Source of the DNA: an uncultured Pseudomonadota bacterium
Lineage (GTDB): Bacteria; Pseudomonadota; Alphaproteobacteria; Rs-D84
DNA: 64,000 nucleotides
Reading direction: 5' to 3'
NCBI GenBank assembly: GCA_902801125.1
Contig: CADCGT010000002.1
Location: 7,157-71,156, forward strand
Below are positions 3,022 to 54,486 of the stretch, in pieces. The position numbers and the translations under genes were made by a program. Under the pieces are notes generated by a model. The model did no database searches. It was not told where the DNA came from and saw nothing but the letters and a program-made list of their open reading frames with translations. Position 1 is the stretch's first letter; each line of letters begins with the position of its first letter.

Positions 3022-3504
3022 ATGAGCAAAAAATTACTTTTCGCCATAATCGCGACAATTTGCACCACCACCGCATTTGCAGATACCAAAACCGTCACCA
3101 CCAAGGATTATGTGGATACCGCGGACGCATTAAAGCAAGATAAAATAGTCGGACATACACAATACCGGCCCGATTCTGTTATAACAGATACCACAAATGA
3201 TGGCGTGCTGGGTAAACGTTTAACTTTGGGTAGTGATCACTGGCTTACCCCCGAGTTTTGGGCAGCTTATTTGGAAGCTGGGTCACTTACGCAAAATCCA
3301 AATGAAGATGTGCAAGAGATGGTAGAAGATGGAGAATTTACTTATGATGATTTGAGAAAATCGTTAGTCCAGGCAAATGTTTTGGAAATCGCATTATCAA
3401 GACTTACTAGCACAATAAATTTGAAACGTATGACCTGTGCGCGGTATGTTGAAAATGCCGCCCAAACGGCCGAAAATTGCCTGCTGTGGAACGTGGTGCA
3501 ATAA
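3022..3504 (+). CDS. Secreted protein, 'KTVTT-YVD / CLLW' family paralog 1
   Basis: Signal peptide MSKKLLFAIIATICTTTAFA, motif DTKTVTTKDYVDTADALKQDK, C-terminal ENCLLWNVVQ. Paralogous to 35438-35986 and 36094-37566. RBS AAGAGGGAA. Confidence 0.7.
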   Translation: MSKKLLFAIIATICTTTAFADTKTVTTKDYVDTADALKQDKIVGHTQYRPDSVITDTTNDGVLGKRLTLGSDHWLTPEFWAAYLEAGSLTQNPNEDVQEMVEDGEFTYDDLRKSLVQANVLEIALSRLTSTINLKRMTCARYVENAAQTAENCLLWNVVQ

Positions 3505-3572
3505 AACGCCGACGAATGTTTTATCATAATACCAAAAACCACCGCTTTTGCGATGGTTTTTATTGTGTGTAT

Positions 3573-3600
3573 TGACAAAAATAAATTTATGTATTATAAT
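3573..3600 (+). promoter_or_regulatory. Near-consensus sigma70 promoter TTGACA-N16-TATAAT
   Basis: TTGACA at 3573-3578 and TATAAT at 3595-3600, directly upstream of the HNH-motif gene. Confidence 0.5.
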
Positions 3601-3622
3601 TTTGTCAAACAAAGGGATTATA

Positions 3623-4669
3623 ATGCGTAAAATGTGTATTTTTTGCGGGCATCGGCCGGTGGACAAGAATAAAGAACATGTTATTCCGCAATGGTTAATA
3701 CGTGAAACCGGTCGGACAAAATCCCCAATTATTGATACACCGGATAAAAAAATTCCGTTCTTGGCGTTTACTATGCCGGCGTGTACGGCGTGCAATGAAC
3801 GGTATTCCAAAATGGAATCCGACGCGCAATCGGTAATGCAGAAAATTTTGGGCGGTATGTCAATAACCGCACCGGAAATCAACACATTGCTTGATTGGTT
3901 TGACAAGGTTCGCGTGGGCCTTTGGCTGGCGAACGCGTATTTGAATCCGCAAAAGTACGATTTTCAACCCAAAATTGCCATAGACACACGTGTCGGCAAA
4001 CTGGACCGCGCATTGGTCGTGGAAAAGATAGATATGCCGGCATCCGACAAGGGAATTTTAATTGAAGGCATTTATTCGCCGATATTCATATATTCTCCGT
4101 CGGTTTTTCAAATGTTGATAAATAATTATTCTTTTACCAGTGCATCGTGTGCAAACCTGGTATCAAACAGGTTGGGTTTCCCGGTTATAAGCAATGTCAC
4201 ATTGGTGTCGGGTGGTCGTACGCATGGTAATTTGTGCCCCGGCCGTGAAAAAGTGACACACCCCGTTATCAAAGATTTTGCACCGTCGGATAACCAGATT
4301 ATTTTATATCAACCGATTTTTTCTCAATTTCAAAAATCGCCACTGTGCCAAACAAAATATGTTCAAAAATACTCTTTGGACCATAATGCAGGTTTGGGCG
4401 GAATATTCTATCAACGCGGTGCAAATTCACCGGTTGTGTATATGTCGGGCGATGATAAAATCCGCCTGAATCCGCGACCATATCCCGATGATGACGCAGA
4501 ATTGGATAAAATATATAAACGTATGTATAACCTGCAAATTGCGGTAAATAATATGCCCATACGTTTCGATACGGGTGATACCGTGGCGGATGCGCAATAC
4601 GCGTTTTTGCGGAAATGTAAATCAGATTTAGTTGCAAATTATGTTAAAGATAATTTTAACGGCCGGTAA
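3623..4669 (+). CDS. HNH-motif nuclease-like protein with a ~300-aa C-terminal extension of unknown function
   Basis: N-terminus CIFCGHRPVDKNKEHVIPQWL (CxxC...EH.IP, HNH-like) and a second CTACN pair. The rest is unrecognised. Single gene with its own promoter. Confidence 0.55.
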   Translation: MRKMCIFCGHRPVDKNKEHVIPQWLIRETGRTKSPIIDTPDKKIPFLAFTMPACTACNERYSKMESDAQSVMQKILGGMSITAPEINTLLDWFDKVRVGLWLANAYLNPQKYDFQPKIAIDTRVGKLDRALVVEKIDMPASDKGILIEGIYSPIFIYSPSVFQMLINNYSFTSASCANLVSNRLGFPVISNVTLVSGGRTHGNLCPGREKVTHPVIKDFAPSDNQIILYQPIFSQFQKSPLCQTKYVQKYSLDHNAGLGGIFYQRGANSPVVYMSGDDKIRLNPRPYPDDDAELDKIYKRMYNLQIAVNNMPIRFDTGDTVADAQYAFLRKCKSDLVANYVKDNFNGR

Positions 4670-4826: not shown

Positions 4827-5459
4827 ATGGCAAGAGATGGGGCAAAACGTAATACCCGTAAATTGAAAATTGGCCGCCGGTTGGGTGTCAACCTGTGGGG
4901 CCAGGCAAAATCACCGTTTAACAAACGCAAATATAAACCGGGCCAGCATGGACCAACTTCGCGTGGCGGCAATATGACCGATTACGCAAAACAGATGCGT
5001 GCAAAACAGACCCTGAAAGGTTATTATGGCAATATCGGTGAAAAGAAGTTCCGTGCATATTATCTGGAAGCGGACAATATGAAAGGCGATACACCGGATA
5101 ACCTTATCGGTTTGTTGGAACGCCGTTTGGACGCGGTTGTATATCGTGCGAAATTTGCACCGACGGTTTTCTCGGCACGTCAGTTGGTAAGCCACGGTCA
5201 TATCTATGTCAACGATAAACGCGTGAAAATTGCATCTTACCAGGTTAAACCGGGCGATGTTATCACGGTAAGTGACAAGGCAAAACAAATGCCGTTGGTC
5301 GTTTTGGCGTTGGAATCGGGCGAACGCAATACACCGGACTATATCAATGTGGATTCTGCGAACTTTGTCGCAACATACACACGCGTTCCGGCATTTGCGG
5401 ATGTTCCGTATCCGGTCCAAATGTCCCCAGAATTGGTCGTCGAATTTTATTCACGTTAA
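4827..5459 (+). CDS. rpsD: 30S ribosomal protein S4
   Basis: [25 protein letters not shown]...KPGQHGP..., S4 N-terminal and S4-domain signature. Confidence 0.95.
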
Positions 5460-5480
5460 TTTTGGAACGCAAAATTCAGA

Positions 5481-5505
5481 ATCCGCCGTTTGGCGGATTT
5501 TTCTT
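5481..5505 (+). terminator. Rho-independent terminator after rpsD
   Basis: ATCCGCC-gttt-GGCGGAT followed by TTTTCTTTG. Confidence 0.6.
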
Positions 5506-5533
5506 TGATTTTCAATTCAATTCGTTGTATAAT
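5505..5533 (+). promoter_or_regulatory. sigma70-like promoter TTGATT-N17-TATAAT for trpS
   Basis: Hexamers at 5505-5510 and 5528-5533. Confidence 0.45.
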
Positions 5534-5560
5534 AATGCAAACAAAATAAAAGATTACAAA

Positions 5561-6565
5561 ATGTCAGATAACAAGATTTATTTGTCGGGGATAAAACCCA
5601 CTGGAACCGTCCATTTGGGCAACTATATTGGTATGCTGAGCCAAATGCGCGATATATCGCACGAACACAAAACGGTTATGTTTATTGCGGATTTGCACGC
5701 GTTGAATATTATGCGCGATGCGAATGCTGTGCGTGAACACACATACGAAATCGCCGCGATTATTATGTCTATGGGTTTTAATATGAACAATGTTTTAATG
5801 TTCCGCCAATCGGATGTGCCGGCCGTGTGCGAATTGTCAACAATGCTGACCAATGTCACGCCCAAGGGTTTAATGGATCGCGCCCATTCGTATAAGGCCG
5901 CGGTTGATAAAAACATCTCCGCCGGAAACGATACGGATTTGGGTGTGAATATGGGACTGTACACATATCCTATTTTGATGGCGGCGGATATATTACTGTA
6001 TAATTCCGATATTGTGCCCGTCGGTGCCGACCAAAAACAACATGTGGAATTTGCGCGTGATATTGCGGGACATTTCAATACAATATACGGCAATGTGTTC
6101 CGGTTGCCCGAACCCCAGATTATGCCAGATGCCGGAATTATACCGGGATTGGATGGCCGGAAAATGAGTAAATCTTATGATAACATCATCCCACTTATGG
6201 CGCCAAGTGCCGAATTGAAAAAGCGTATTATGCGCATAATCACCGACAGCAAAACACCCGACGAATCCAAAGACCCGGATGAATCTACGATATATATGCT
6301 TTATCGTCATTTTGCAACCGCGGCGGAATCGGCCGATTTGGCGGAAAAATTCCGCGCCGGCGGTATGGGATATGGCACGGCGAAGACAATCCTGTTTGAA
6401 AAATTGGATTCTGTGTTATCACCAATGCGGGTCCAATATGAATATTTAATGGCGAATAGCAATGAATTGGACGATGCGTTGTCGAACGGTGCGGAAATCG
6501 CGCGCCGTATCGCGGACAAGACCATGACACGCGTGCGCCATGTAATGTTGGGAACAAAAAAATAA
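5561..6565 (+). CDS. trpS: Tryptophan--tRNA ligase
   Basis: GIKPTGTVHLGNYIG (HIGH-type) and KMSKS. Start at the internal ATG 5561. Confidence 0.95.
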   Translation: MSDNKIYLSGIKPTGTVHLGNYIGMLSQMRDISHEHKTVMFIADLHALNIMRDANAVREHTYEIAAIIMSMGFNMNNVLMFRQSDVPAVCELSTMLTNVTPKGLMDRAHSYKAAVDKNISAGNDTDLGVNMGLYTYPILMAADILLYNSDIVPVGADQKQHVEFARDIAGHFNTIYGNVFRLPEPQIMPDAGIIPGLDGRKMSKSYDNIIPLMAPSAELKKRIMRIITDSKTPDESKDPDESTIYMLYRHFATAAESADLAEKFRAGGMGYGTAKTILFEKLDSVLSPMRVQYEYLMANSNELDDALSNGAEIARRIADKTMTRVRHVMLGTKK

Positions 6566-13244: not shown

Positions 13245-13268
13245 CCGCCCGTTCGGGCGGCTTTTAAT
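13245..13268. terminator. Bidirectional hairpin terminator between convergent genes
   Basis: CCGCCCG-ttc-GGGCGG followed by CTTTTAATT. Confidence 0.5.
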
Positions 13269-14349
13269 TATCCAACACGCCGGCGTGATAGACGGTATTG
13301 TTGTATGTTAAATTCAAACTGACGGTGCCGCCGTTACCGGCCTCAAGTGGCACATAGCATGTCACGCCGTTTTGCCTAATATTGATTGCCACACTTGTCA
13401 CCTTGGTTGCAAACAGCGGAAATGATAAACCGGTACCGGTTTTTAATTGTGTGGCAAACGAACACAAATCCGGACACACACCATTATACGCGTGATCACA
13501 CGCCACCGCATCCGGTTTACAGGCAACACGCGGCGTTGCCGCGGTACCGCTTGTGCCAGGTTTCCAATAATTTTCATATCCGGTTGTTACTTGTGTTGTC
13601 CCGGTTGGACATGTTGTAGCCAACTTGGTATCGTTTTTGAATATATCGGTCATATTGGATGTGTTGGATGTGCTTATATTGTCAATACCATCAAATAAGT
13701 TATATGGTATATATCCATCCAAATTAGTGCATCCATAAAACATCTCGTTAAACATTCGTGTTCGTGCGTTTCCGTGTATCCCATCAAATAATGTAGCTGG
13801 AATTAGACCACGCAGGTTGGTTGCGCCACGAAACGCCGAATAAAATAATGGTTGATCCGTTGCACTGGTCCCGTTGTTCAGTGTTGGAAACAAAGCGCCC
13901 AAACTGCCCGAAATTTCGTACAGGTATTCTGGTGTTGCATAACCACCATATATACTTATAACCGCATTTGCATAATTTGTATCTTTCTTTGGATACTGAG
14001 TAAAATTGCCGCTCAATCTAATGGTATAACATTCTTGGTTATCATAAAATTTGCGCGTAATTGCCATACGGTTGTTCAGGTTATTATTTCCTAATGTTTT
14101 GGTTTCTGTGTACCCGTCCCCCCAATCAATATACAAAGTTCCAAGTGCAGAAACATAAAAAGTAAAATCGTCTCCGTTTGATGGGAAATTACATACCCGC
14201 ATTTCAAATTGTGATGGGACACATGTTGCACCGTTGTTTATAGAAATTTCATCAGCTGTGCATGCGACCGCGGGCGCGATATGAAGCGCGCCAAAAACAC
14301 CGACAAATACGAGTGTCGAAATACGCAAAAAACGCACAAGATTCAACAT
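13264..14349 (-). CDS. Secreted repeat protein of unknown function
   Basis: Signal peptide MLNLVRFLRISTLVFVGVFGALHIAPAVA. Internal repeats GLIPATLFDGIHGN / GYIPYNLFDGIDNIS. Cys-rich C-terminus. Confidence 0.55.
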   Translation of the reverse strand: MLNLVRFLRISTLVFVGVFGALHIAPAVACTADEISINNGATCVPSQFEMRVCNFPSNGDDFTFYVSALGTLYIDWGDGYTETKTLGNNNLNNRMAITRKFYDNQECYTIRLSGNFTQYPKKDTNYANAVISIYGGYATPEYLYEISGSLGALFPTLNNGTSATDQPLFYSAFRGATNLRGLIPATLFDGIHGNARTRMFNEMFYGCTNLDGYIPYNLFDGIDNISTSNTSNMTDIFKNDTKLATTCPTGTTQVTTGYENYWKPGTSGTAATPRVACKPDAVACDHAYNGVCPDLCSFATQLKTGTGLSFPLFATKVTSVAINIRQNGVTCYVPLEAGNGGTVSLNLTYNNTVYHAGVLDN

Positions 14350-14458: not shown

Positions 14459-16387
14459 TTATATCTGTGCGGCAAGTGCGGAATATATCACACCCAAATC
14501 CGTCTTGATCAATGTTGCCGACAATTTATCGGGGGCGTCTGTTTGTTTTGCCGCCACCAATATTTTATCGAAACTGCGCACGAATTGTGTCGCCTGGGAC
14601 CGGAATACAGAATCAGATTTTAACAAATCGCGAATCCTTTTTTTGTCGGCGGCGCGAACGATTTTCGCCATCCACTTTGCGAATATTGTTTTGTCGCCAT
14701 CGTGATACTTTTTCCAAACAACATCTGGAATTTCACCACCCATAGCGCGGGTAAGGTCGATTGTCTGTTCATACATTTTATCAAATTCACGCGCACTGGC
14801 GTCCAAGAAATCGCGGCTGCTGGCGCCCGGGATCGGTGCCGCGGTGGTGGCGGATTTAATCGCCTCCATCGGGGCGGCGGCGCGCGCAACCATCATTTGT
14901 TTGTTCAATGTCTGCATCGTGTCAACGGCCTTGGCATAGTCAGACATCAAATCAATCATTTGTTGGCGCGATGCCCCGGCCAGGTTTTCCAATTTCAACG
15001 CAGATTCAGAAACACTGACCGTCGATTTTTCGACCGTATCGCGTATTGCGGCAATTTTTTCATCCAATTCCGATACAATTTTGCCAAGTCCAATTCCGGC
15101 GTCGCCCGATTGCCGCGCCAATTCGGGCAGGGCTTCATAGTATTTTTCAATCAATTCAGACAGCGGTTTTAACTGGGCGGTTGTTTGTTCCGACATTTTA
15201 ATCAATCCTTCGGATTGGCCGGTCAATTGCGTGTGTGCCGCGTTCATTTCTATCAATGTTTCGCGCACGCCCGTCGCCATGGATTTAACCGATTCGGAAA
15301 ACGCGTTTGCGGCGGTCTTGGTGTCTTTTAATGTTGTGTTCGCAACGCCAGATACGGTCTGTAATTCACCAACAACATCGTTTGCAAAATCCTTGATTTC
15401 GGTTTCAAAATGATTGGTCAAACCCGACAATTCGGACGATATGCCGCGCACAGAACTTTCCGTTTCGGTTGCACTGGTCATCAAAGATTCAACCGCATCG
15501 GTCAATTTCTTGATTTGTTTTTCGATGGACGATTCCGATAATAAAACCTGGGCGCCGACGACATTCGCGGTGTTCGTAAGGGTGTTCATCTGGGCCGTCA
15601 ATTGCTTTTTGCTCTGTTTGCCGAAATTATCAAGTTTGCTAAGGTATGCATTTATAACCTTGTTATTTTCATCGATAACATTTTCATAATTTGATGCAGA
15701 ATTTTTAATTTCATTAAATCCATCAACACTGTTTTTGGTCAATTCTGAAATTTGACCCTGGATAGTATTTGATTCTTCGGTCATTTTTTGAAATTGTTCT
15801 GTGTTGGATTCAAACGCACTACGCAATTGGTTTTCAAGGTTTCCACTGGCATCGGTCCACTGTGCGATTTTTGTGTCGATTTGTGAAATTTTGTCGGTGG
15901 AATCGTTTGTGGTTTCGGTTATGCGCGCCAATGTTTCGCCAACGGTTTGTGCAAATCGGTCTGTTGCCGATGCGGCGTTTTCCCACGATTTGGATGTCAC
16001 CACCTGGGTAAGGCCGGAAATAGTATTATCCATGCGCCCGGTCATTTGAACCACGCGTTGAATCGCATTGTTTGCAACATCAACCAATTCTGTATTGTGC
16101 GTGTTCAATTCATCACGCAATTTCTGGGCAGATTCGATTTGTGAATTTAATGTTGCCTGCATGTTTTGGAAACACGCAATAATGCGTTTAATTTCATCCG
16201 CCATTATTACCTGTAATACGCGTGACGCATCGGTGATTCGCGCACGGTCGGGCGCGGTCATAATCGATATGACCGATTCCATAACGCGCTGGGATTTTCG
16301 CGATATGAAAAACAGCACAATCAACGCGATAAACATTAAACCCATAACCGATATACCGGCGATAACCAAAATATTGTTTAAATCCAT
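14459..16387 (-). CDS. Membrane-anchored long coiled-coil protein
   Basis: N-terminal TM segment ILVIAGISVMGLMFIALIVLFFI, then ~550 aa of Q/E/T/S-rich heptad-like sequence and a globular C-terminal domain. No MCP signalling signature. Start at the internal ATG with RBS AAGGAAATG. Confidence 0.55.
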   Translation of the reverse strand: MDLNNILVIAGISVMGLMFIALIVLFFISRKSQRVMESVISIMTAPDRARITDASRVLQVIMADEIKRIIACFQNMQATLNSQIESAQKLRDELNTHNTELVDVANNAIQRVVQMTGRMDNTISGLTQVVTSKSWENAASATDRFAQTVGETLARITETTNDSTDKISQIDTKIAQWTDASGNLENQLRSAFESNTEQFQKMTEESNTIQGQISELTKNSVDGFNEIKNSASNYENVIDENNKVINAYLSKLDNFGKQSKKQLTAQMNTLTNTANVVGAQVLLSESSIEKQIKKLTDAVESLMTSATETESSVRGISSELSGLTNHFETEIKDFANDVVGELQTVSGVANTTLKDTKTAANAFSESVKSMATGVRETLIEMNAAHTQLTGQSEGLIKMSEQTTAQLKPLSELIEKYYEALPELARQSGDAGIGLGKIVSELDEKIAAIRDTVEKSTVSVSESALKLENLAGASRQQMIDLMSDYAKAVDTMQTLNKQMMVARAAAPMEAIKSATTAAPIPGASSRDFLDASAREFDKMYEQTIDLTRAMGGEIPDVVWKKYHDGDKTIFAKWMAKIVRAADKKRIRDLLKSDSVFRSQATQFVRSFDKILVAAKQTDAPDKLSATLIKTDLGVIYSALAAQI

Positions 16388-16476
16388 TTCCTTTGCCCCC
16401 CAAAAAATAGAACATATATGTTCTTGCAGTTTCTGACACTTTATACTAAAATTCATAAAATAAAGCAAGGATATAA

Positions 16477-19107
16477 ATGATAAAAAAAGATAAACTTTCA
16501 CCCGAACAGGAAATTGCCGCCGAACCAACACTTAATGTCTGGGTCCAGGCAAACGCCGGCACCGGAAAAACCAGTGTTTTAACCGAACGGTTGTTGCGTA
16601 TATTGTTTCGGGCCGATGAACCAATGGGTGGAATTTTATGTTTGACCTATACCAACGCGGCGGCGGGCGAAATGCGTAATCGTATTTTGGCGGCGTTGCG
16701 TCGTTGGGCAATGTCAAATGATAAAGATTTGTGCGAATTATTGCGCGGGGTGACAACAAATAAAAATCCAACGCCGGCGGATATATCGCATGCGCGCGAC
16801 ATATTTTTTAAATATATCGACACACCGGAAATATTAAAGATAAAAACTATACACGGTTTTTGTGAAGAAATTTTGCATCGTTTCCCGACCGAGGCCGGCC
16901 TTTCACCATCTTGGTCTTTGATATCCGATGCACCGCAACAGGTTTTGTTAAATGATGCGTTAAATGCGCTTGTAAATTCTCCGTCAAACGATGCGCGAAC
17001 GGTTGGGGCGTTTAACCATATTGTTGGCATAGTATCTGAATATAAAATCGATGATTTATTAAAAAATATTGGTCAACAATACAAGCACTTTTTTACGGTG
17101 AATAATTTTGATAACTATCGCGAATACTTTATTGATACGATTGAAAAAATTCTAAATATAAAAAATAAAAATTATACACAAAAAAACGATGAAAAATTGC
17201 GTTTCATCGTTGAAAGCGCAAAAAACGAAAAAAAGATCGGTAAAAAACTTGAAAACCTGATTCGCCTTACCGAACAATATATTAAAAACACAATAGATTT
17301 TGAAGAATACAAATCTGCGTATTTAACCACGGCCGGAACGATTATCCAGGGAGGTCTAAATTATGATTATTTAGATGCGGAAAAAGAACGTGTGTTCAAC
17401 GAAAATGTGTATCGCATAAATTATAAAATTTATACGGCGACAATTGCGTTGTTTGATTTGTCGGCGGCATTTGCAAAAAAATATATGGAATTGAAACAAA
17501 TTCATAATGTGTTGGATTTTGAAGATTTGATTTTATACACACACCGTTTGTTTTCAAACCCGGAAAATATGGGCTGGGTTTTATCCCAGATGGATTTGTC
17601 CTTGTCGCATATCTTGGTGGACGAGGCCCAAGATACCGGCCCATTGCAATGGGAACTGTTGCAAATGTTGTCTGGGGATTTCTTTGCCGAAGGCGATAGA
17701 ACGAATTTGCCGCGTTCGTTGTTCGTTGTGGGCGATACAAAACAATCAATCTATGGATTCCAAGGTGCCGACCCGAACGCGTTTGCGGCAAGTCGCGAAC
17801 AAATATCGGCCCAAATTAAAAACAACGCGCGCCAAATACGCGAAGTACCACTGACGCAAAGTTTCCGTTCGGTTGAACCGATATTGCAAACGGTCGATAT
17901 GTTTTTTGGAAACGAAAATGTTGCCGCGCGCACGGGCTTTGTAAACAATCCGCATAAATGTTTTCGTGTTGGTGATGTGGGCGCGGTTGAATTGCATGGA
18001 CTGTGCACACCGGGCGAAAGGCAAACGGAAATCGCCCGCAAAGAATACATTCGTGATATTGCCGATAAAATAGAAACATTATTGTTGGGCGGTAAATATG
18101 AACCGCACGACATTATGATTCTTGTACAAAATCGGAATCCGCTTGCGGTTCCGATGGCAAATGAATTAAAGCGTCGCGGCATAGATGTCGCGGGCAGTGA
18201 TCGCGTCATTTTGCCAAATTTCCCGGTGATTCGCGATTTAATGAACTTGTTGCGTTTTTGCATGGATAATGACGATGATTATTCTTTGGCGTGTGTGTTA
18301 AAAAGTCCGTTATTCGGATTAAATGACGATGCGTTATATAAAATATGCATGGCGCGAAATAATGAAACGGTGCGTCGCCGTCGTGAAAATCCGGAGGCAC
18401 CGCGCGCAACAATTCGTGAATTTGTTAAAAATATGTATCCAGAAATATATTCGTGCCTGGTCGATTTTGTGGCGCGTGCGCAAATCGATGGACCATACAG
18501 TTTCTTTACATACGTATTAAACACAAATAAAACGCGTGAAAAGTTTATTGCGGCGCTTGGCCCCCAGATAATAGATCCATTGGAAGAATTTATTACCATG
18601 TGTCTTGCGTATGAACGCACGCGTCCTGGGGGGCTTAGACATTTTATAAAGTGGTTTATTACCGGAAACAGTGAAATAAAACGCGATATGGATTCGGGGT
18701 CTGGGGTTCGTATTGTCACTGTCCATGGCAGTAAAGGTCTGCAATCGCCCGTTGTATTTTTAATAGACACAACATCGGTTCCAAAATCACACAATATATA
18801 TGATTTGCCCGATGCCAATATGCCGATATGGCTTTGGACGCCACACACCGCGGATGGCGTGACACCACAATTATTAAACATTCGTGATAAACAATTGTCC
18901 AAAGATATCGAAGAAAGTTTTCGTTTGTTGTATGTGGCGATGACGCGTGCGCGTGACGAATTGTATATTTATGGGTTTACACCAAACAAATCCGCCCCAG
19001 AAATATCGTGGCATTCAATGTTGTGGGAAACTTTATCGCGGGCGCCGGGTATAACGGTTTCAAATGATTTAATAAGGATTTCAAACGATGACGGCAATGT
19101 TAAATGA
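16477..19107 (+). CDS. addA: Double-strand break repair helicase AddA, N-terminal UvrD-like helicase portion
   Basis: LSPEQEIAAEPTLNVWVQANAGTGKTSVLTERLLRIL (AddA N-terminus with Walker A), UvrD motifs, C-terminal VHGSKGLQ.. / YVAMTRARDELYIY. Confidence 0.8.
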   Translation: MIKKDKLSPEQEIAAEPTLNVWVQANAGTGKTSVLTERLLRILFRADEPMGGILCLTYTNAAAGEMRNRILAALRRWAMSNDKDLCELLRGVTTNKNPTPADISHARDIFFKYIDTPEILKIKTIHGFCEEILHRFPTEAGLSPSWSLISDAPQQVLLNDALNALVNSPSNDARTVGAFNHIVGIVSEYKIDDLLKNIGQQYKHFFTVNNFDNYREYFIDTIEKILNIKNKNYTQKNDEKLRFIVESAKNEKKIGKKLENLIRLTEQYIKNTIDFEEYKSAYLTTAGTIIQGGLNYDYLDAEKERVFNENVYRINYKIYTATIALFDLSAAFAKKYMELKQIHNVLDFEDLILYTHRLFSNPENMGWVLSQMDLSLSHILVDEAQDTGPLQWELLQMLSGDFFAEGDRTNLPRSLFVVGDTKQSIYGFQGADPNAFAASREQISAQIKNNARQIREVPLTQSFRSVEPILQTVDMFFGNENVAARTGFVNNPHKCFRVGDVGAVELHGLCTPGERQTEIARKEYIRDIADKIETLLLGGKYEPHDIMILVQNRNPLAVPMANELKRRGIDVAGSDRVILPNFPVIRDLMNLLRFCMDNDDDYSLACVLKSPLFGLNDDALYKICMARNNETVRRRRENPEAPRATIREFVKNMYPEIYSCLVDFVARAQIDGPYSFFTYVLNTNKTREKFIAALGPQIIDPLEEFITMCLAYERTRPGGLRHFIKWFITGNSEIKRDMDSGSGVRIVTVHGSKGLQSPVVFLIDTTSVPKSHNIYDLPDANMPIWLWTPHTADGVTPQLLNIRDKQLSKDIEESFRLLYVAMTRARDELYIYGFTPNKSAPEISWHSMLWETLSRAPGITVSNDLIRISNDDGNVK

Positions 19108-19534
19108 TTTAATATCTGTGCGCACACACCAAGAATACGCAACCGCATCGGGGCGTCGCACGCACGCACAAATGGCGCATGTCTTTTACACCAAAGATGG
19201 CTGGACGGGCGATACAGAATTGATAAAACAAATTTCTGGGATTCCAAATATGTCGGAATTTTTTGGGCCACTTTCCAGGACCGAGGTTCCAATCGCGGGG
19301 TATGTCGATGGAAAGTTTATAAGCCGTCGCGTTGACCGATTGTATGTTGATGATATGGCGCACAAAGTGGTTGTCTTGGATTATAAAACAGATGTAAATA
19401 AAAATTTGTTCCGTAAAAAATATACAGAACAATTAAAAGAATATTATTTATTGTTAAAGCAAATTTACAAAAATTATTCGATTGAATGCAATGTGCTTTG
19501 GCTGAATGATTTTACACTGGAAAACATAATATAA
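19088..19534 (+). CDS. addA: AddA C-terminal RecB-family nuclease domain in the +1 frame (frameshift-split or pseudogenised addA)
   Basis: GYVDGKFISRRVDRLYV...VVVLDYKTD...EQLKEYYLLL matches the RecB nuclease motifs (D...D.K, Q..Y). Overlaps the upstream ORF by 20 nt in another frame. Confidence 0.7.
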   Translation: MTAMLNDLISVRTHQEYATASGRRTHAQMAHVFYTKDGWTGDTELIKQISGIPNMSEFFGPLSRTEVPIAGYVDGKFISRRVDRLYVDDMAHKVVVLDYKTDVNKNLFRKKYTEQLKEYYLLLKQIYKNYSIECNVLWLNDFTLENII

Positions 19535-19551
19535 ACGGGTATAATACTGGC

Positions 19552-21201
19552 ATGCTTACGAACCTTAATATTTCTAATATTGTTTTAATAGATAAACTGA
19601 ACCTTGGGTTTGGTGTGGGTTTAAATATTTTGACCGGTGAAACGGGCGCGGGTAAAAGTATATTGCTGGATGCGCTTGCACTTGCGTTGGGTGCGCGGTC
19701 GGATATGGGGCTTGTGCGACATGGTGCAGACATGGCATCCGTGGTCGCGGAATTTGATGGGGCGAATGATAAAATATATTCGATTATGGACGAGGCGGGC
19801 ATTGAACGCGATACAAACATTATATTGCGACGCACGCTTGGCGCGGATGGTAAAAGTCGCGCCTGGGTCAATGACACGCCGGTATCAATCAAAACCCTTA
19901 AATCAATTGGTGATGAATTGGTGTCTGTGCACGGTCAATTTGCCAACCATGCATTATTGAACCAGGCAACACATCGCGCAACATTGGATGATTTTGCATT
20001 AAAAAACTATAATGATTTTAATGTGTTGTTAAACGATGTTCGCGAAACGTATCACGAATATCACACATTGGCACAACGCTTGAAAGAAACCGAAGATTTT
20101 ATTGCGCGCAATGCAACGGAACAAGAATACCTTGAACACAATGTTGCGGAATTGCGCAAATTGAATGTGCAACCGGGCGAAGAAGAAGAATTGGCTACGC
20201 GCCGCGCCGATTTAATAAATGCCGAAAAAAACGCCGCGATATTGACCGATGCGGCAAATGCAATTGGCGCGGGTGGCAATACTTTGGATGCCCAGATATT
20301 TGCGGTTGCACATATTTTGGAACGCATAAAAACCGAACCAAATCCATTTTCGGAACAAATAGACGCACTTTATAACGCGGCGGAAATGGTTGCGAATGTT
20401 GCGGGCGCGATTTCACCCGACGAAATCGACACAGACACGGTCGATTCAATCGAAGAACGTTTGTTCGCAATACGTGCGGTGGCGCGCAAACATCATGTCA
20501 CTGCGGATGAATTGCCAAATAAACTGCACGATATGGAATCGCAATTAAATACTATAAATAACAGTGACGCCGAATTAAAAAAATTGCGCGATGCCGTTGA
20601 TGGGGCGCATAAAAAATACGTGGTGTGTGCGGCGAAATTGACCGATGCGCGTCATGTGGCGGCGGCGAATATGCGCGAACGCATTTTGCGTGAATTGCCA
20701 GATTTGAAATTGGCAAATGCGGATTTTATGGTTGAATTTTCACAAATTGCGCCGTGTGCATCCGGTATGGATGACATAACATTTATGATAAAAACAAATC
20801 CAGGTATGCCATTTGCCCCATTGCATAAATCGGCCTCGGGGGGTGAATTGGCGCGTTTAATGTTGGCGATGCGCGTGGTGTTGGCAACGGCCGATAAGGC
20901 GCATACATTTGTTTTTGACGAAATTGACACGGGAATAAGTGGCGCCACCGCTTCGGCGGTGGGGGAACGGTTAAATCGCCTTGCCGCCGGGGGCCAGGCA
21001 TTGGTTATAACCCATTCGGCCCAGGTTGCAGGCTTTGCCGACCGGCATTTCAAAATTGAAAAGAATTCCAAGGACAATATTACAACAACCACAGTTCGCG
21101 AGATTTCCGGGGCCGAACGGCTAAACGAAATCGCCCGAATAATCAGTGGTGCGGAAATAACCCCCGAATCATTGGCCACCGCCAAGACATTGATGAAATA
21201 A
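19552..21201 (+). CDS. recN: DNA repair protein RecN
   Basis: LNISNIVLIDKLNLGFGVGLNILTGETGAGKSILLDAL. SMC-like coiled coil. C-terminal SGGELARLMLA...FVFDEIDTGISG. Confidence 0.95.
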   Translation: MLTNLNISNIVLIDKLNLGFGVGLNILTGETGAGKSILLDALALALGARSDMGLVRHGADMASVVAEFDGANDKIYSIMDEAGIERDTNIILRRTLGADGKSRAWVNDTPVSIKTLKSIGDELVSVHGQFANHALLNQATHRATLDDFALKNYNDFNVLLNDVRETYHEYHTLAQRLKETEDFIARNATEQEYLEHNVAELRKLNVQPGEEEELATRRADLINAEKNAAILTDAANAIGAGGNTLDAQIFAVAHILERIKTEPNPFSEQIDALYNAAEMVANVAGAISPDEIDTDTVDSIEERLFAIRAVARKHHVTADELPNKLHDMESQLNTINNSDAELKKLRDAVDGAHKKYVVCAAKLTDARHVAAANMRERILRELPDLKLANADFMVEFSQIAPCASGMDDITFMIKTNPGMPFAPLHKSASGGELARLMLAMRVVLATADKAHTFVFDEIDTGISGATASAVGERLNRLAAGGQALVITHSAQVAGFADRHFKIEKNSKDNITTTTVREISGAERLNEIARIISGAEITPESLATAKTLMK

Positions 21202-25856: not shown

Positions 25857-26414
25857 ATGGCAGATAACGATAATTTTGAAGAAAAAGAAATACAATCTGA
25901 TGACCCAATGATCCAAAAATGTTTGGATATTATCCGTGATAAAAGGGCCTGGGTGGAAGATTTATGTGATAATGGTATTTACAGTGTATATATTGGTAGG
26001 AAAAAATATTTTCAAATTCAGAGATGTTATAATAGTGGTACGAAATACAATATAGACATAAACTACCAAACTTATAAGTTTTATGGGTCACGACCGGATT
26101 TGGAAGAATTGTATAGGTTGTGTAATTCTAAATATGCCGACAAATCAAAAGAAAGACAACAAAACGCACTTGATTTTTTGCGTACCAAGGAAAGTACCAA
26201 GGAAAGATGCAGAATAAAACCTGGGGTGCTTTTTATGATTGCGGGAATACTGGTCATGGCTGCAGCGATTGTGAAATATCAAAAAGACCAAAAAACGCAA
26301 CGCGTGGAAGAAAAAGTTAAAGCATATGAAAAAACTCTGCCGGCGGATTATTTGGAATATAAACAGGCGGTTGAACACTATCGCGACAGTTTAATGCACG
26401 CCAAAGGCCGGTAA
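25857..26414 (+). CDS. Orphan operon gene 1, hypothetical protein with one C-terminal TM helix
   Basis: ORF with RBS AAAGGAT. TM segment GVLFMIAGILVMAAAIV. AT-rich, AGA/AGG Arg codons. Confidence 0.5.
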   Translation: MADNDNFEEKEIQSDDPMIQKCLDIIRDKRAWVEDLCDNGIYSVYIGRKKYFQIQRCYNSGTKYNIDINYQTYKFYGSRPDLEELYRLCNSKYADKSKERQQNALDFLRTKESTKERCRIKPGVLFMIAGILVMAAAIVKYQKDQKTQRVEEKVKAYEKTLPADYLEYKQAVEHYRDSLMHAKGR

Positions 26415-26430
26415 ACAAAAAAGGAATAAA

Positions 26431-26826
26431 ATGCCAGCGCAATCGATAAATGAATACACTGAAATGATGTCTGAACCCGGGGTTAGCGTTTCCAAGGTCG
26501 ACCTGGGGGATTTTTGTGGCTTTATGGATGACCGGCGGGACAACAGTTTTATTATATCCAAAGATGGCGAAAAAGTATTCGGTATTCGGAATTCGCACAT
26601 ATACTTTGGCCGCATTATTAGAATCAAAATGAACACTATCACTTTGTATGATCCGCACGACTATCGGTCTTTGGTGACCAAGCGGTTCGGTCAAAATGGT
26701 TATAAAGAACTGTATAAATTGCAACGTGCGGTGGAAAATATCTATACAAAACAAAATGAATACGAAAAATCCAATATGTCGGATGTTCGTGGTCAGATGT
26801 TTCGGCATGATAACGGTCGGCAATAA
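26431..26826 (+). CDS. Orphan operon gene 2, hypothetical protein
   Basis: ORF 16 nt after gene 1 with RBS AAAGGAATAAAATG. Confidence 0.45.
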   Translation: MPAQSINEYTEMMSEPGVSVSKVDLGDFCGFMDDRRDNSFIISKDGEKVFGIRNSHIYFGRIIRIKMNTITLYDPHDYRSLVTKRFGQNGYKELYKLQRAVENIYTKQNEYEKSNMSDVRGQMFRHDNGRQ

Positions 26827-26838
26827 AAAGGATAAAAA

Positions 26839-27264
26839 ATGAATCAAACTGACAAGAAAACCGTGGTAACATTGACCAATATTCCACAGGGTTTGGGTGA
26901 ACGAACGAAATTGAATTGTGGCGAAATAACCGAAAAACAGAAACAAGATTTCTTGGCCTCAATTATGCGCTTTGACCCAGAATCAACAAATTTTGCCAAT
27001 CATTGTGGGTTTAATTTGTATTATGATAAATTTAATGCTTGGGTTGCTCCGTTTGGTATGAAAAGGAACTATAAACCACAATATCGCAGAAATGGTGACA
27101 AAGAAATGGTAATAGAAACCATGCCTATGAAATCCCCAGAATGCGGTGCATATGAAAAAAGCGAATGTCCAAAATATTTAGCAGACGGCAAATGCACATC
27201 GCCATTGGTTAAACGGACCGTTGGTGCACTGTTGTTCCCCGATAAATATGGGAAAGAAAGATAA
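26839..27264 (+). CDS. Orphan operon gene 3, hypothetical Cys-containing protein
   Basis: RBS AAAAGGATAAAAAATG. Cys pairs CGEI..., ECGAYEKSECPKYLADGKC. Confidence 0.45.
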   Translation: MNQTDKKTVVTLTNIPQGLGERTKLNCGEITEKQKQDFLASIMRFDPESTNFANHCGFNLYYDKFNAWVAPFGMKRNYKPQYRRNGDKEMVIETMPMKSPECGAYEKSECPKYLADGKCTSPLVKRTVGALLFPDKYGKER

Positions 27265-27282
27265 AAATAAAAGGATAAAACA

Positions 27283-27897
27283 ATGCGATTACAATCATCT
27301 GTTCATTTTGAGATTTTTTCCGAGCTGTTTTATTTGAAAAATATATCCGACCAGACTGGATACAAGCAGCTGTTGACACCGGCATCACGCAGAGCCTCCA
27401 TAGCCGCGCAATTACGTGACGGCACATCAAAACAACCCCAGGACCTGTTGGAATCTGTCCGCGATTTTTGTTTGCATATTGCGACAAGTGCCGAAGATTC
27501 CTTTTACCTGGACAAACTGACATACTTGGTTAAATTGTATCGCAAGGTTAGAATTGCCGATACTGATGACAAAGAGTATTTTCAACATCATGATTTTAAT
27601 GGTGACAAATTTGAATTTATACTGGCCACAAATGATAAATTGATATACCCACGCGATATTAAAAGTGCTTTGCGTGTCCCATTTTATTTTAGCAGCATTA
27701 TAAGCGATAAAGAATTAAAGTCGGATACCCCAGTATATATAGAAAAATATGACACACATAATGCCGTTGTGCGACCATTGACAATGCAAGATAGGGTCGT
27801 TGATAAAAATTTGAACCAAATTTGGCCACTGGATACAAGAGAAACTCCAATGGGGTTAAAGAAATTGCTAGAACAAACAACCGAAAAAGTGAGATAA
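27283..27897 (+). CDS. Orphan operon gene 4, hypothetical protein
   Basis: RBS AAAAGGATAAAACAATG. Confidence 0.45.
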   Translation: MRLQSSVHFEIFSELFYLKNISDQTGYKQLLTPASRRASIAAQLRDGTSKQPQDLLESVRDFCLHIATSAEDSFYLDKLTYLVKLYRKVRIADTDDKEYFQHHDFNGDKFEFILATNDKLIYPRDIKSALRVPFYFSSIISDKELKSDTPVYIEKYDTHNAVVRPLTMQDRVVDKNLNQIWPLDTRETPMGLKKLLEQTTEKVR

Positions 27898-27928
27898 CCA
27901 ATACGGTAAAAAATAAAAAGGTATTAAA

Positions 27929-28381
27929 ATGAACGATAATGAAGTAAATAAACTTATTCGTTATATATTAGAACATAAGCCACCAAAGTTTCGTCTGCGC
28001 ATAGAATATTTAGGAAAAGAAGTATCAAGAGCCGAACTTTTCGATATCGCGTATCCATTTAGGTATAATGATAGCGTTTTGCATTTAGGTAAAAAAATAA
28101 AACTGTCTTTTAATATGCTTGACACGTGTCAACGTTGTAAAGATGAAATCAATATAATGACATCTTTAACTAAATCAGATGTTGCATCAGAATTACTGCA
28201 ACATCACACCATTCAACCGGGCAATTATAGTATGGATGCAGATACTAAGAAAATGGTGATCAAGGCGTTTATACAGCAAAAGAACAAAGACATTCGTATC
28301 AGAAAATTTCAAGACGGGATCTATGCTGTGTTTCATCAGTTGGCGCACTTTGGTAAAAAAGCACAAACAAATAATCGATAA
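27929..28381 (+). CDS. Orphan operon gene 5, hypothetical protein
   Basis: RBS AAAAAGGTATTAAAATG. Confidence 0.45.
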   Translation: MNDNEVNKLIRYILEHKPPKFRLRIEYLGKEVSRAELFDIAYPFRYNDSVLHLGKKIKLSFNMLDTCQRCKDEINIMTSLTKSDVASELLQHHTIQPGNYSMDADTKKMVIKAFIQQKNKDIRIRKFQDGIYAVFHQLAHFGKKAQTNNR

Positions 28382-28399
28382 AAAAAAAGGAAAATAAAA

Positions 28400-29020
28400 A
28401 TGTCTTATTGGTTTTGGGATGATTGTGGTGGTATGTCGGATTTTCAACAGGAGTATGTTGCGGCATTCCTGGATGGTAAAATGCCCGATTTAATGAACGA
28501 AATTATGGAAACCGCCAACAAGTTCAACAATGATGTTTGTAAAAATGATGTCCGTAAATCTGATATTCCAAATACAGAATACATAACAATAAACGCCAAT
28601 GGTATCTTTGTTGGTGGTAAACCATCGACACATTATCGTGGTGAAAAAATAAAGTCCTCGGACTTGGCAATTAGCATTTTTGGTTCCATACAAAGAGAAA
28701 TCAATCCAAATGTTCAAGAATTACATGTTTTGTCATCTGAAACCAGGGGGCATCGTGCGCAAACTGGGAAACCAAGTGCTGAACCTGGCGAAAATGCATG
28801 GTATCGTGTGAAATTTAATGATGGAACAATATCTGATTGGGTTTATCTTTCATCACAAGGCAGTGGCCCAAGTTGTGCACGAATTTGTGCATATATTTGT
28901 GCAGATGATGCCCGCTATGGCCACCAATTTCTTCCTGTAGAAAAGCCGGAAGAAACAATGTCCGCTTGCGAAAGAATAAAAAGATTTTTTGGTAAAAAAA
29001 CAACCGAAATTTCGCGATAA
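28400..29020 (+). CDS. Orphan operon gene 6, hypothetical protein
   Basis: RBS AAAAGGAAAATAAAAATG. CARICAYICADD Cys cluster. Confidence 0.45.
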   Translation: MSYWFWDDCGGMSDFQQEYVAAFLDGKMPDLMNEIMETANKFNNDVCKNDVRKSDIPNTEYITINANGIFVGGKPSTHYRGEKIKSSDLAISIFGSIQREINPNVQELHVLSSETRGHRAQTGKPSAEPGENAWYRVKFNDGTISDWVYLSSQGSGPSCARICAYICADDARYGHQFLPVEKPEETMSACERIKRFFGKKTTEISR

Positions 29021-29034
29021 TAAAAAGGCAACAA

Positions 29035-29940
29035 ATGTCGAATTCGTATGATAAACATGTCTATAGGGTTAAGTCGGATGAAGAAATGGCAAAGATCGCG
29101 GCCAAGGCCGAGGAAGAATTTCGCGATCAACAAACAATCGAACTGAATAAAGAATTGGACCGGCATAAAACCGAACTCGATCAATTGCCGGAAATATTTC
29201 GTGTCCGAATTGGTGCCTTGCAAGAAGTCAACCCAGAAAAATTTTCGGATTGCCCCGAACTTACCCTGGCCAGTTTGGCGGCCGCGCGCCTGGTTCGGAG
29301 TTTGCCGGACAAATTCCGGGATATTTCAAACACATATTATAACGAGGTTATTTTTGAATATGGGATATTGTGGGACGTTATCAAACCGAACGCGGTATCA
29401 AAATTGGTGTATGCATATCGCGATGATGTAAAAAGCGGCGCAATTGATAAAAATGGTAATGTTAAAAATCTGACAAAATCCAAAGTTATGACACTATGTC
29501 ACGATTCCGAAGAATACGGCCGGCCGTGTGATGCCAATGGTGTGTATTTTCGGTTTAACTGTAAAAAGCCAAAATCGGGAATAACCCTTAAACAAATTAT
29601 TCGCAGTCATATACGACCATACAAATACTATTCCGATGATAACAAACTGGTTGGATCCTATGTCATGCATATGCCGAATGAATTTGATGGGCGACCATGG
29701 CCCAGTATAAAATTTACCCCATCTGTTGGAACGTATGTCGAAACCGCGGTTGGTGCATCAATTCAGATATCGTACGATTATCAAACCAATGTTTGGATGG
29801 TGTTCCGTGGTGTGCAAATCGATGTGCCGTATAAAACCAAACCCAGCGAGATTGAGGCAATTGTTGATAAATACCTTAACGCATGGCATCAATTGGTGGC
29901 GACACGTGGGCATCTTGTCGCCGCAGATTATAGCGATTAA
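29035..29940 (+). CDS. Orphan operon gene 7, hypothetical protein
   Basis: RBS AAAAAGGCAACAAATG. 301 aa, no recognisable motif. Confidence 0.45.
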   Translation: MSNSYDKHVYRVKSDEEMAKIAAKAEEEFRDQQTIELNKELDRHKTELDQLPEIFRVRIGALQEVNPEKFSDCPELTLASLAAARLVRSLPDKFRDISNTYYNEVIFEYGILWDVIKPNAVSKLVYAYRDDVKSGAIDKNGNVKNLTKSKVMTLCHDSEEYGRPCDANGVYFRFNCKKPKSGITLKQIIRSHIRPYKYYSDDNKLVGSYVMHMPNEFDGRPWPSIKFTPSVGTYVETAVGASIQISYDYQTNVWMVFRGVQIDVPYKTKPSEIEAIVDKYLNAWHQLVATRGHLVAADYSD

Positions 29941-29961
29941 ACAATATGAAAGGAAAATAAA

Positions 29962-30729
29962 ATGATGGATAAAACAAATTCAAAAACAATTCCAACACCA
30001 TTGTTCGAGGCATCTACGGCATACAAACGTCTGTGTGGCTTGCAATGTGATATTAAAAACAATGATGTATATGGGCTTTATGTTTATATGCGTGGCGATG
30101 GGGTCGCGTTGGTGCAAGACAAAGATACCGATTTAGGGGTTGAACAATATCATTTGGCCAATGGGGATTATTGCGACAAATATTACAATTTATTGTGCCA
30201 GGTCAAAGATTATGAAAATTTTTTGATTTCCGAGGTTAATGAAAACGCCAAAATAGCCAGCATTATGCCCAAAAATATTGATATATTTAACAAAGGATAT
30301 AACCCCAATGAAACAACATCGTGGCGCAGGTCGCGTTGCATTTTTCGATTTGGCAACCCACAAATGGTGCCATTGAATGTATTTGGCGGATACAATCCGA
30401 TAGTTATACAAAAAGATAGTGCCGATTTGATCGGGATTGGCGAATGTGTTCCTGTATTCAAAACGGTCATAGTTTGTAAAAACCAACCGGATTATTATGT
30501 GTATTTGATAAAATTGATTGATTCCATTCATGCCGGGGCCGGCACTTATGCAAAACGCCCCTGTATTCACATTTCGTTATTTGATAACAGGGAAAATGCG
30601 GATGCATACAAAGAATATATGGACTCGGAATCTGAAAAATTTCAAAACTATCCGATGTATCCGGACATTGAAAAACAGTGTTATCCCGCCCTGCAACGGT
30701 TCGATAAATATATGGGCAAATCGCGGTAA
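29962..30729 (+). CDS. Orphan operon gene 8, hypothetical protein
   Basis: RBS GAAAGGAAAATAAAATG. Confidence 0.45.
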   Translation: MMDKTNSKTIPTPLFEASTAYKRLCGLQCDIKNNDVYGLYVYMRGDGVALVQDKDTDLGVEQYHLANGDYCDKYYNLLCQVKDYENFLISEVNENAKIASIMPKNIDIFNKGYNPNETTSWRRSRCIFRFGNPQMVPLNVFGGYNPIVIQKDSADLIGIGECVPVFKTVIVCKNQPDYYVYLIKLIDSIHAGAGTYAKRPCIHISLFDNRENADAYKEYMDSESEKFQNYPMYPDIEKQCYPALQRFDKYMGKSR

Positions 30730-30742
30730 AAGGAAAACAAAA

Positions 30743-31495
30743 ATGGCAGAAGCTGCAAAGAAATTCTTGGAACAATATGGGCTGGACAAATTGCCACGAA
30801 TTGACGGTAATTACGCAAAGTTTCGGGGCAAATACGTCTTTATGTTGCACGATTATGCACCAATATCTCAATCGATACTGCATGGCGGTAGCGGTAGAAT
30901 TGGTGTTAAACGCATGGAAAATTTTTGGTCCTTGGTGGCGAACGGTGCACGCGTGGTGGATGGCATATTTATCTCCACCCCATGGTCAATCGAAGACCCT
31001 TTTCAAAGACGTTTGGGAGAACCAAAAAAAATAGATACAAATTATGTGATATATACTATGAAAGCTATCAAGAATGATAATTGGATTGATGTGCCACATG
31101 GATTTGCGAAAGACCCATACGATAAGACCTTTATGAAACACATGCGGGATGGCGACCGTGCAACATTAGAAAACATAATTATTCATGAACGGGATAAAGA
31201 AGGTTGGTGGGATTTTAACGAACGAAAAAAGTGGTGGGATTACGAAAAATCCAAGATCAAATCAGCACTGTTATTAGATGGTTTTGATGTGTTTGTTTGG
31301 GCAACGACTTTGTTGGATGTTGACCCAAAGGCAACACTTAACCTTTTGCGTTATGCTAGCACAAAAATGCCATGTTTCCTGGATTCTGGTTTTGAACATT
31401 ATTATGATGACAACAGTCAATGTGAACCATATATTCCTAACAAAGTCAGGGTAACCGTATATCTTGGTACAGAAATTGTGGACCAAAGTCGTTGA
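30743..31495 (+). CDS. Orphan operon gene 9, hypothetical protein
   Basis: Start chosen at MAEAAKKF with RBS AAAAGGAAAACAAAAATG. The longer track ORF (30518) overlaps gene 8. Confidence 0.45.
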   Translation: MAEAAKKFLEQYGLDKLPRIDGNYAKFRGKYVFMLHDYAPISQSILHGGSGRIGVKRMENFWSLVANGARVVDGIFISTPWSIEDPFQRRLGEPKKIDTNYVIYTMKAIKNDNWIDVPHGFAKDPYDKTFMKHMRDGDRATLENIIIHERDKEGWWDFNERKKWWDYEKSKIKSALLLDGFDVFVWATTLLDVDPKATLNLLRYASTKMPCFLDSGFEHYYDDNSQCEPYIPNKVRVTVYLGTEIVDQSR

Positions 31496-31521
31496 TTTTT
31501 AACAACAAAAAAGAGATAAAA

Positions 31522-31803
31522 ATGGCAAAAGAAATTGAAATGGAACCTTTGTATGAACGGGATTATAATTTGCCCCAAGACACATATGTTTGTTCGGCTA
31601 CTGGGTTGGTATGTGAAAAGGTATCACAACATTTTCGTGAATATCGTGCATTTATAGAACACTTGTCTGAAACAAATGATAACAGATTATTTTTACAAGG
31701 TGAACCAAATTTGTGTATTGATCCGGATTATTTTGGTCGTTGCACTGTTTATGATAATGTTATGAAAAAAGTTGCCGAGCTCGCCAAAAACAAAGGTCGT
31801 TAA
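31522..31803 (+). CDS. Orphan operon gene 10, hypothetical small Cys-containing protein
   Basis: Start at MAKEIEME with RBS AAAGAGATAAAAATG. Confidence 0.4.
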   Translation: MAKEIEMEPLYERDYNLPQDTYVCSATGLVCEKVSQHFREYRAFIEHLSETNDNRLFLQGEPNLCIDPDYFGRCTVYDNVMKKVAELAKNKGR

Positions 31804-31838
31804 AAATCCTATCCTTTACACCGATTTTATGATATAAT

Positions 31839-31863
31839 TCTCCTGTTATCACAGGAGATTTTT
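31839..31863 (+). terminator. Rho-independent terminator whose 3' arm supplies the SD for the next gene
   Basis: TCTCCTGT-tatc-ACAGGAGA followed by TTTTT, then ATG at 31864. AGGAGA sits 5 nt before the ATG. Confidence 0.55.
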
Positions 31864-32154
31864 ATGAAAGAAATAATTGCTTATGCATTTTTATCTGTTT
31901 ATACCATTTTGGAATTTGTTGCCTATATTCCCCAGATTATCAAGATATTAAAGACCCGGCATGCCGATGATTTAAGTTTAACATCTTGGTTCGTATGGAT
32001 TACAACCGATTTGTCTTATTTGGGGTATGTTCTGTTGGAAACACCAGAGGTTGGTGTGATATTTATCGCCACACTAGATTTGGTATTTATTGTGACCGTA
32101 TTCTTGCTAACCGCATATTATCAAAAACACAACAAACGTAAAAAAAGATGCTAG
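31864..32154 (+). CDS. PQ-loop / SemiSWEET-like small membrane transporter
   Basis: 96 aa, three predicted TM helices, YIPQIIKILKTRHADDLS (PQ-loop motif). Confidence 0.55.
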   Translation: MKEIIAYAFLSVYTILEFVAYIPQIIKILKTRHADDLSLTSWFVWITTDLSYLGYVLLETPEVGVIFIATLDLVFIVTVFLLTAYYQKHNKRKKRC

Positions 32155-51632: not shown

Positions 51633-51662
51633 ATCAACATCTCCATAAATTATCAATTGTCT

Positions 51663-52901: not shown

Positions 52902-52946
52902 TTTTTCCTTCCTTTTTTTTTATTTTAATTGTTTGTTTATTGTTTT

Positions 52947-54464: not shown

Positions 54465-54486
54465 TTTACACCTTTCCTTTTTGTTT

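Follow-up and report, generated by a model that had tools for sequence, protein, structure and literature searches.

A probable ancient fission of addA at the helicase-nuclease tether in Candidatus Enterousia and related gut and rumen Alphaproteobacteria

We analyzed a 64-kb stretch of DNA from an uncultured bacterium of the alphaproteobacterial order Rs-D84 (assembly GCA_902801125.1, contig CADCGT010000002.1, positions 7,157 to 71,156; hereafter the window), in which addA is divided into two overlapping open reading frames (ORFs). ORF1 (16477-19107, plus strand) encodes the AddA helicase, and ORF2 (19088-19534, plus strand) encodes the AddA nuclease. Comparison of sequences makes it highly probable that this division is an ancient, fixed fission of addA at the helicase-nuclease tether, common to Candidatus Enterousia (Rs-D84) and related gut and rumen Alphaproteobacteria, and we propose that the two polypeptides reassemble non-covalently. 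A preliminary description of the locus had offered a sequencing indel, a pseudogene and a genuine two-piece addA as explanations. The third was supported by the conserved split and the intact expression signals described below.

Results

The helicase and nuclease genes

ORF1 encodes 876 amino acid residues, ends with TGA at 19105-19107, and was assigned to the AddA helicase subunit by Pfam, TIGR02784 and PDB matches. Its SF1 UvrD-type helicase core is intact and was detected with PF00580 (UvrD-helicase, 2e-52) and PF13361 (UvrD_C, 1e-26), and its top NCBIfam and PDB sequence matches were AddA (PDB: 3u44_A). The TIGR02784 (addA_alphas) profile aligned with ORF1 over positions 2-895 of 1138 (657.6 bits, E 5e-197). 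ORF1 contained no nuclease domain, and its C-terminus falls a few residues past the conserved IRISN strand. ORF2 matched TIGR02784 at positions 1030-1132 with 50.1 bits and gave a weak PDDEXK_1 match. Neither product reached the equivalog cut-off of 860.75 bits, ORF1 because its C-terminal part is absent. A C-terminal RecB-family nuclease on the same polypeptide, as expected of AddA, was found neither in the window nor in any of the 84 loci of the clade with a detectable nuclease motif.

ORF2 encodes a stand-alone nuclease subunit of 148 residues in the +1 frame relative to ORF1 and belongs to the RecB-family PD-(D/E)XK nucleases. It contains the motifs VDRLYV, VVVLDYKTD and QLKEYY, which agrees with the earlier reading of addA as a helicase ending at 19107 and a nuclease beginning at 19088 in another frame. 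The active-site residues are H26 (19163-19165), E66 (19283-19285), D83 (19334-19336), D98-Y99-K100 (19379-19387), Q115 (19430-19432) and Y119 (19442-19444). All of these were invariant among 77 distinct ORF2 sequences except Q115, which was present in 76. The residue set (His, Asp, Asp-x-Lys, Q-x3-Y) corresponds to the full RecB-family active site.

Searching PDB sequences with the ORF2 profile returned noise only and was uninformative; therefore, a fold search was used, in which ORF2 showed the AddA/RecB nuclease-domain fold. The AlphaFold model of ORF2 was confident (pLDDT 89.7). Among 312 pairs with dS of 0.05-1.5, pairwise dN/dS had a median of 0.29 and ranged from 0.10 to 0.56. ORF2 thus has an intact active site and an intact nuclease fold, which suggests that it is a functional nuclease. 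We also considered ORF2 as a shortened "mini" nuclease and rejected this, as the stretch between the catalytic His and the C-terminus matches that of a canonical AddA (P0251) in length. The segment missing from the split pair is the linker, not the nuclease core.

Conservation of the split

The exact ORF2 protein was found on 13 independent contigs from different samples, with the same 876-residue ORF1 5' of it in every locus whose upstream region is included. The best 120 ORF1 homologues (97-57% identity) were all 857-888 residues long, and nearly all of the approximately 120 ORF2 homologues listed (98-43% identity) were stand-alone proteins of 145-163 residues. When one genome per GTDB species was scanned, an ORF2 relative was encoded in 174 stretches, mostly from Candidatus Enterousia and other gut or rumen Alphaproteobacteria. 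The 80 loci kept from these 174 were named Candidatus Enterousia or uncultured Alphaproteobacteria and came from samples of the rumen or gut of cattle, goat, yak, buffalo, deer, sheep, chicken, horse and others. No fused gene was found among the 84 loci with a located nuclease motif, where the open frame spanned 100-250 codons, and 83 of the 84 junctions were in the +1 frame. Seven loci missed by the first motif pattern had the same arrangement with small motif variants. The usual annotation of the small protein is "hypothetical", and that of the large protein is a generic UvrD helicase. Enterousia belongs to the GTDB order Rs-D84, whose genomes are approximately 0.7-1.6 Mb, mostly <1 Mb, without pseudogene accumulation (PMC12306168). 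The gene split is conserved and common to >170 species of gut alphaproteobacteria with small genomes.

These data bear on the two explanations that would make the split an artifact or a relic. A sequencing or assembly indel in a single addA gene would be compatible with a joint open stretch of only approximately 29 nt that holds short homopolymer runs. However, the identical arrangement recurred on the 13 contigs, the split was present in approximately 170 species-level genomes and hundreds of protein clusters, and it was always kept although the junction sequences differ among species. We therefore discarded the indel, the probability of which is negligible. Decay of addA in a reduced genome, leaving a non-functional nuclease remnant, would fit the genome sizes given above, the lack of a nearby addB, and the loss of the AddA nuclease domain by a premature stop in some Wolbachia strains (PMC4224334). 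Against decay stand the constant length of ORF2 down to 43% identity, the median dN/dS, the catalytic residues kept in the 77 sequences, the conserved start codon and Shine-Dalgarno sequence, and the reported lack of pseudogene accumulation in Rs-D84. A pseudogene is thus extremely improbable, and the comparison with addA of relatives that had been called for indicates a functional split rather than decay.

Two database labels were noticed during this survey. OZ246409.1 (locus L054, a 716,531-bp "chromosome 1"), titled "uncultured Muribaculaceae bacterium", carries an Enterousia-type split addA locus and is probably mislabelled, because it is of a size expected for the reduced genomes of Rs-D84. 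The same seems to apply to P0429, which bears the label "Lachnospiraceae bacterium".

The junction and initiation signals of ORF2

The ORF2 frame is closed by stops at 19070-19072 and 19073-19075, and both frames are open only over 19076-19104. The narrow joint stretch after the stop at 19073-19075, noted at the outset, was confirmed. The two genes overlap by 20 nt on the plus strand (19088-19107), from the ATG of ORF2 at 19088 to the TGA of ORF1, which is a translational-coupling geometry. An AGGA Shine-Dalgarno sequence of ORF2 is located at 19075-19078 on the plus strand, 9 nt 5' of the ATG. The Arg codon (AGG) and the Ile codon (ATT) that form it belong to the conserved IRIS motif of ORF1.

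Comparison of 73 distinct junction sequences revealed an ORF2-frame ATG in every one, 4-20 nt before the ORF1 stop, and the overlaps among relatives measured 4, 8, 11, 14, 17 or 20 nt. AGGA preceded the ATG in 65 of the 73 junctions and a purine-rich variant in 7 more, and the spacing was nearly always 6 or 9 nt. Among the internal ATGs of these helicase genes, only 0.7% show this AGGA-ATG configuration. AGG accounts for 1.7% of Arg codons across ten genes of the window, and fused sister genes have CGT or a Glu codon at the AGG position and no AGG-based Shine-Dalgarno sequence at the junction. The enrichment of AGGA, the rarity of AGG and the codons of the fused sisters therefore indicate that the nucleotide sequence is selected as a ribosome-binding site. 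As in coupled overlapping gene pairs, a downstream ATG and Shine-Dalgarno sequence lie within ORF1 with its stop close by, and coupling is predicted from this geometry. An Rfam scan revealed no known frameshift or other RNA element at the junction; its sole match in the window was one tRNA. Judged from these signals, the junction is a conserved gene boundary with its own Shine-Dalgarno sequence and ATG, and "frameshift" describes its geometry alone.

Programmed +1 frameshifting near the ORF1 stop, with a Shine-Dalgarno-like stimulator as in prfB, would yield a fused AddA instead of or beside two products. The +1 frame of 83 of the 84 junctions and the AGGA upstream of the ORF1 stop are what such a mechanism would use. 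On the other hand, no slippery codon was conserved (the last sense codons were AAA, GAA, AAC, GTC and others), and the distance from AGGA to the stop varied from approximately 11 to 26 nt while that from AGGA to the ATG was fixed at 6 or 9 nt. Several species also have an ORF2-frame stop directly before the ATG, leaving only 11 nt for a shift. In addition, the junctions of loci L064 and L098 are in the other frame, the two genes of L094 are separated by an in-frame stop and a spacer, and the nuclease gene of L046 is unlinked from a helicase gene. Frameshifting is very unlikely on this evidence.

Fused relatives and other split geometries

An exhaustive profile-free search placed ten 50%-identity cluster representatives of 846-1007 residues closest to the split gene (868-551 bits), followed by a sharp break, with canonical AddA (approximately 1090-1200 residues) starting only at approximately 474 bits. 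The fused near relatives were the P0247 group (989-1035 residues) and P0400-P0404 (1032-1083 residues). The closest of these, P0404 (1069 residues, locus L093) and P0247 (1007 residues), showed 42-45% identity, and ORF2 aligned with residues 880-1006 of P0247 at 38% identity (E 1e-24). Both share with the split genes a compact nuclease domain and the lack of an adjacent addB. Unlike the split pair, each is one continuous polypeptide in which a disordered linker spans approximately 48 residues.

In the AlphaFold (AF2) model of P0404, this linker is the disordered segment 876-923 (pLDDT <50), which sits between the last helicase strand (ITRIA, the equivalent of IRISN) and the first nuclease helix. 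Its edges coincide exactly with the end of ORF1 and the beginning of ORF2. From helicase motif VI to the nuclease His there are 83 residues in the two window proteins summed, versus 104-140 in the fused forms. The locus of fused P0404 is syntenic with the window (rpoD, TrcR, coiled-coil protein, addA, recN, xseA, tsaD, DUF2155, rplS, trmD); therefore, the fission occurred in place. Sequence comparison and the model together suggest that the split is the derived state and that the tether was removed.

Other geometries were found in a few loci. At the L064 junction and in L098 (8592-8595), the genes overlap by 4 nt (ATGA) in the other frame, and in L094 (12659-12700) an in-frame TAA and a spacer precede the nuclease ATG. 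A rough neighbour-joining tree, made without support values, took in the helicases of L094 and L098 (P0406 and P0407) and left out that of L064. In this tree, the split subclade P0405-P0409 nests among fused forms. Its members have an ATGA overlap or an in-frame stop, in contrast to the +1 overlaps of the main Enterousia clade. This second split group hints that independent fission at the same tether may have occurred, in more than one event.

Locus L046 (JAITJD010000030.1, "Rickettsiales bacterium Pcl387_bin15") carries an ORF2-type nuclease gene at 3226-3804, upstream of recN (4884-6524), with one 293-residue ORF between them. No AddA helicase was found in the 3.3 kb upstream of this nuclease gene. 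Its neighbours were an outer-membrane beta-barrel protein and unknown ORFs. A nuclease gene can therefore persist unlinked from a helicase gene. This homologue, which stays near recN with no helicase upstream, and the adjacency of ORF2 and recN in most split-clade loci examined would favor ORF2 being an independent nuclease no longer partnered with ORF1, perhaps acting with RecN or another partner. However, apart from L046, every split locus examined has ORF2 immediately after the helicase gene or overlapping it, ORF2 retains an AddA-type active site and fold, and translational coupling suggests selection for co-production. We regard an independent nuclease as unlikely.

The addB question

The absence of addB from the neighbourhood, noted earlier, held for the 64-kb window in family, motif and AddB-sequence searches. 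AddB was not found among the window's ORFs of at least 500 residues, which were scanned with NCBIfam or Pfam or identified by synteny, and a 998-residue ORF of locus L008 was not AddB in an NCBIfam/Pfam scan. Among open frames of at least 100 codons in the window, the motif [LIVMF]D[YFW]K[TSG] occurred in ORF2 alone. When a second RecB nuclease motif was sought by regular expression in the window and 94 loci, only ORF2 and fused AddAs matched. Searches with hmmsearch and phmmer using Rhizobium and Sphingomonas AddB queries, over frames of at least 80 codons in the window and 95 related loci (1.79 Mb, with the relatives covered to 10 kb on each side of the locus), found none (best E 0.38).

In the canonical loci of Rhizobium (L096) and Sphingomonas (L097), addB is directly upstream of addA in the order addB-addA-trxA. 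An adjacent addB is also absent in the fused sister lineages, and in Wolbachia the locus tags of addA and addB, WD_0359 and WD_0912, are far apart (PMC4224334). Non-adjacency alone is therefore no sign of loss, and addB is either unlinked or absent in the clade. The missing addB had been thought to bear on end resection; the non-adjacency is real, but it says little about loss, as the fused sisters and Wolbachia are alike in this respect.

Gene neighbourhood

recN (19552-21201, plus strand, 549 residues) starts 17 nt after ORF2 and is probably in the same operon. Its orthologues in loci L001-L010 have Pfam SMC_N and AAA_23, and the gene order was constant in all loci examined. No plus-strand terminator-like site was found over 18205-21200. 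A promoter-like site (CTGACA-17-TAAAAT, 10/12 match) is located at 16433-16461 on the plus strand, just 5' of the ORF1 start, and is weak evidence. A second (TGGAAA-16-TATAAT) is located at 19518-19545, inside the 3' end of ORF2 and just before the recN ATG at 19552. Promoter-like sites in the region were at chance level, with 17 found and 16.8 expected from shuffling. The terminator and promoter scan as a whole yielded no more sites than chance and was not relied upon.

The gene 5' of ORF1 (14459-16531, minus strand) had been described as a divergently oriented coiled-coil membrane protein. It is a minus-strand coiled-coil protein, and no real Pfam family was found for it. Orthologues of 605-690 residues lie beside or a few genes from addA in L001-L010, L093-L095 and L098. 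This neighbour is kept in split and fused lineages and is not AddB-like.

Other features of the window were noted. On the minus strand, 13264-14349 encodes a 361-residue Cys-rich protein with an N-terminal hydrophobic signal-like segment and no Pfam match. GC content falls to 37.7-38.9% within 26000-32000, versus a window mean of 44%. The ORFs at 29035-29940 and 29962-30729 in this low-GC part have no Pfam match, and relatives have a run of Pfam-less small ORFs there. Four consecutive large ORFs (698, 412, 524 and 808 residues) at 49560-56913 on the minus strand have no NCBIfam match, and only weak alanine-zipper or collagen-like Pfam matches.

Discussion

In the arrangement that we propose, ORF1 would provide an SF1 helicase and ORF2 a complete RecB-type nuclease domain, made as separate polypeptides. 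ORF2 would be translated from its own ATG with the AGGA Shine-Dalgarno sequence within the last ORF1 codons, and ribosomes finishing ORF1 would reinitiate on ORF2, giving roughly matched amounts of the two proteins. One mRNA probably carries both genes for co-translation and for co-expression with RecN. The free nuclease would probably dock non-covalently on the helicase, and on AddB if one is encoded, forming an AddA-like end-resection enzyme. With AddB, this would be a three-subunit AddAB; without it, a minimal helicase and nuclease pair.

Several points weigh against this proposal. Expression, the N-terminus of ORF2 and a complex of ORF1 and ORF2 are predicted from sequence. The +1 frame of 83 of the 84 junctions fits common descent, yet it is also expected under frameshifting. 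None of the genomes examined had AddB, the seat of the AddA nuclease domain in B. subtilis, close to the locus. In B. subtilis AddAB (3U4Q), the AddA nuclease domain packs against AddB. We also consider, as a tentative and rather doubtful idea, that the clade, and possibly the fused sisters too, is AddB-less, with a lone SF1 helicase and an untethered RecB-type nuclease co-expressed with RecN, and fission perhaps repeated. Such an AddB-less pair, if true, would differ in its helicase-nuclease architecture from AddAB, RecBCD and AdnAB alike.

The two proteins of the split pair resemble the parts of known systems. ORF1 has the SF1 UvrD-type core of AddA (B. subtilis AddAB, PDB 3U44/4CEH; Rhizobium sp. 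NLR16a, L096 4938-8483), and ORF2 has the RecB-family fold and the catalytic H, D, D-x-K and Q-x3-Y of the canonical AddA nuclease. Canonical AddA is one polypeptide, whereas here there are two genes and two proteins with the tether deleted, and no adjacent addB in place of the canonical addB-addA-trxA order. E. coli RecB likewise joins a helicase to a RecB-type nuclease domain on a flexible tether, which here is cut. In RecBCD, Chi control needs a covalent tether of the right length and flexibility (PMC6326792). In mycobacterial AdnAB, AdnA and AdnB each have a covalent nuclease, and no second helicase-nuclease subunit was found here.

Wolbachia of supergroup B from isopod hosts also have addA interrupted between helicase and nuclease, by a premature stop from which the authors concluded that a few strains had recently lost the nuclease domain (PMC4224334). 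In contrast, the downstream part in the present clade appears old, conserved, separately initiated and under purifying selection. A split AddA or fission of addA was not described in the literature searched, where the Wolbachia stop was the nearest case. The components are those of an ordinary AddA, but their arrangement is unusual, and no clade-wide, selected, tetherless two-gene AddA was found in the literature searched.

Deletion of the tether with both halves under purifying selection suggests that recruitment of the nuclease does not depend on a covalent link, and the pair offers a ready-made two-piece system for studying nuclease-docking control. AddA function is under-called in gut and rumen genomes by annotation pipelines because the labels read "hypothetical" and generic UvrD helicase, and frameshift or pseudogene flags at a split addA locus would be wrong. 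For double-strand break repair in genomes of <1 Mb, these findings suggest that both AddA activities are retained.

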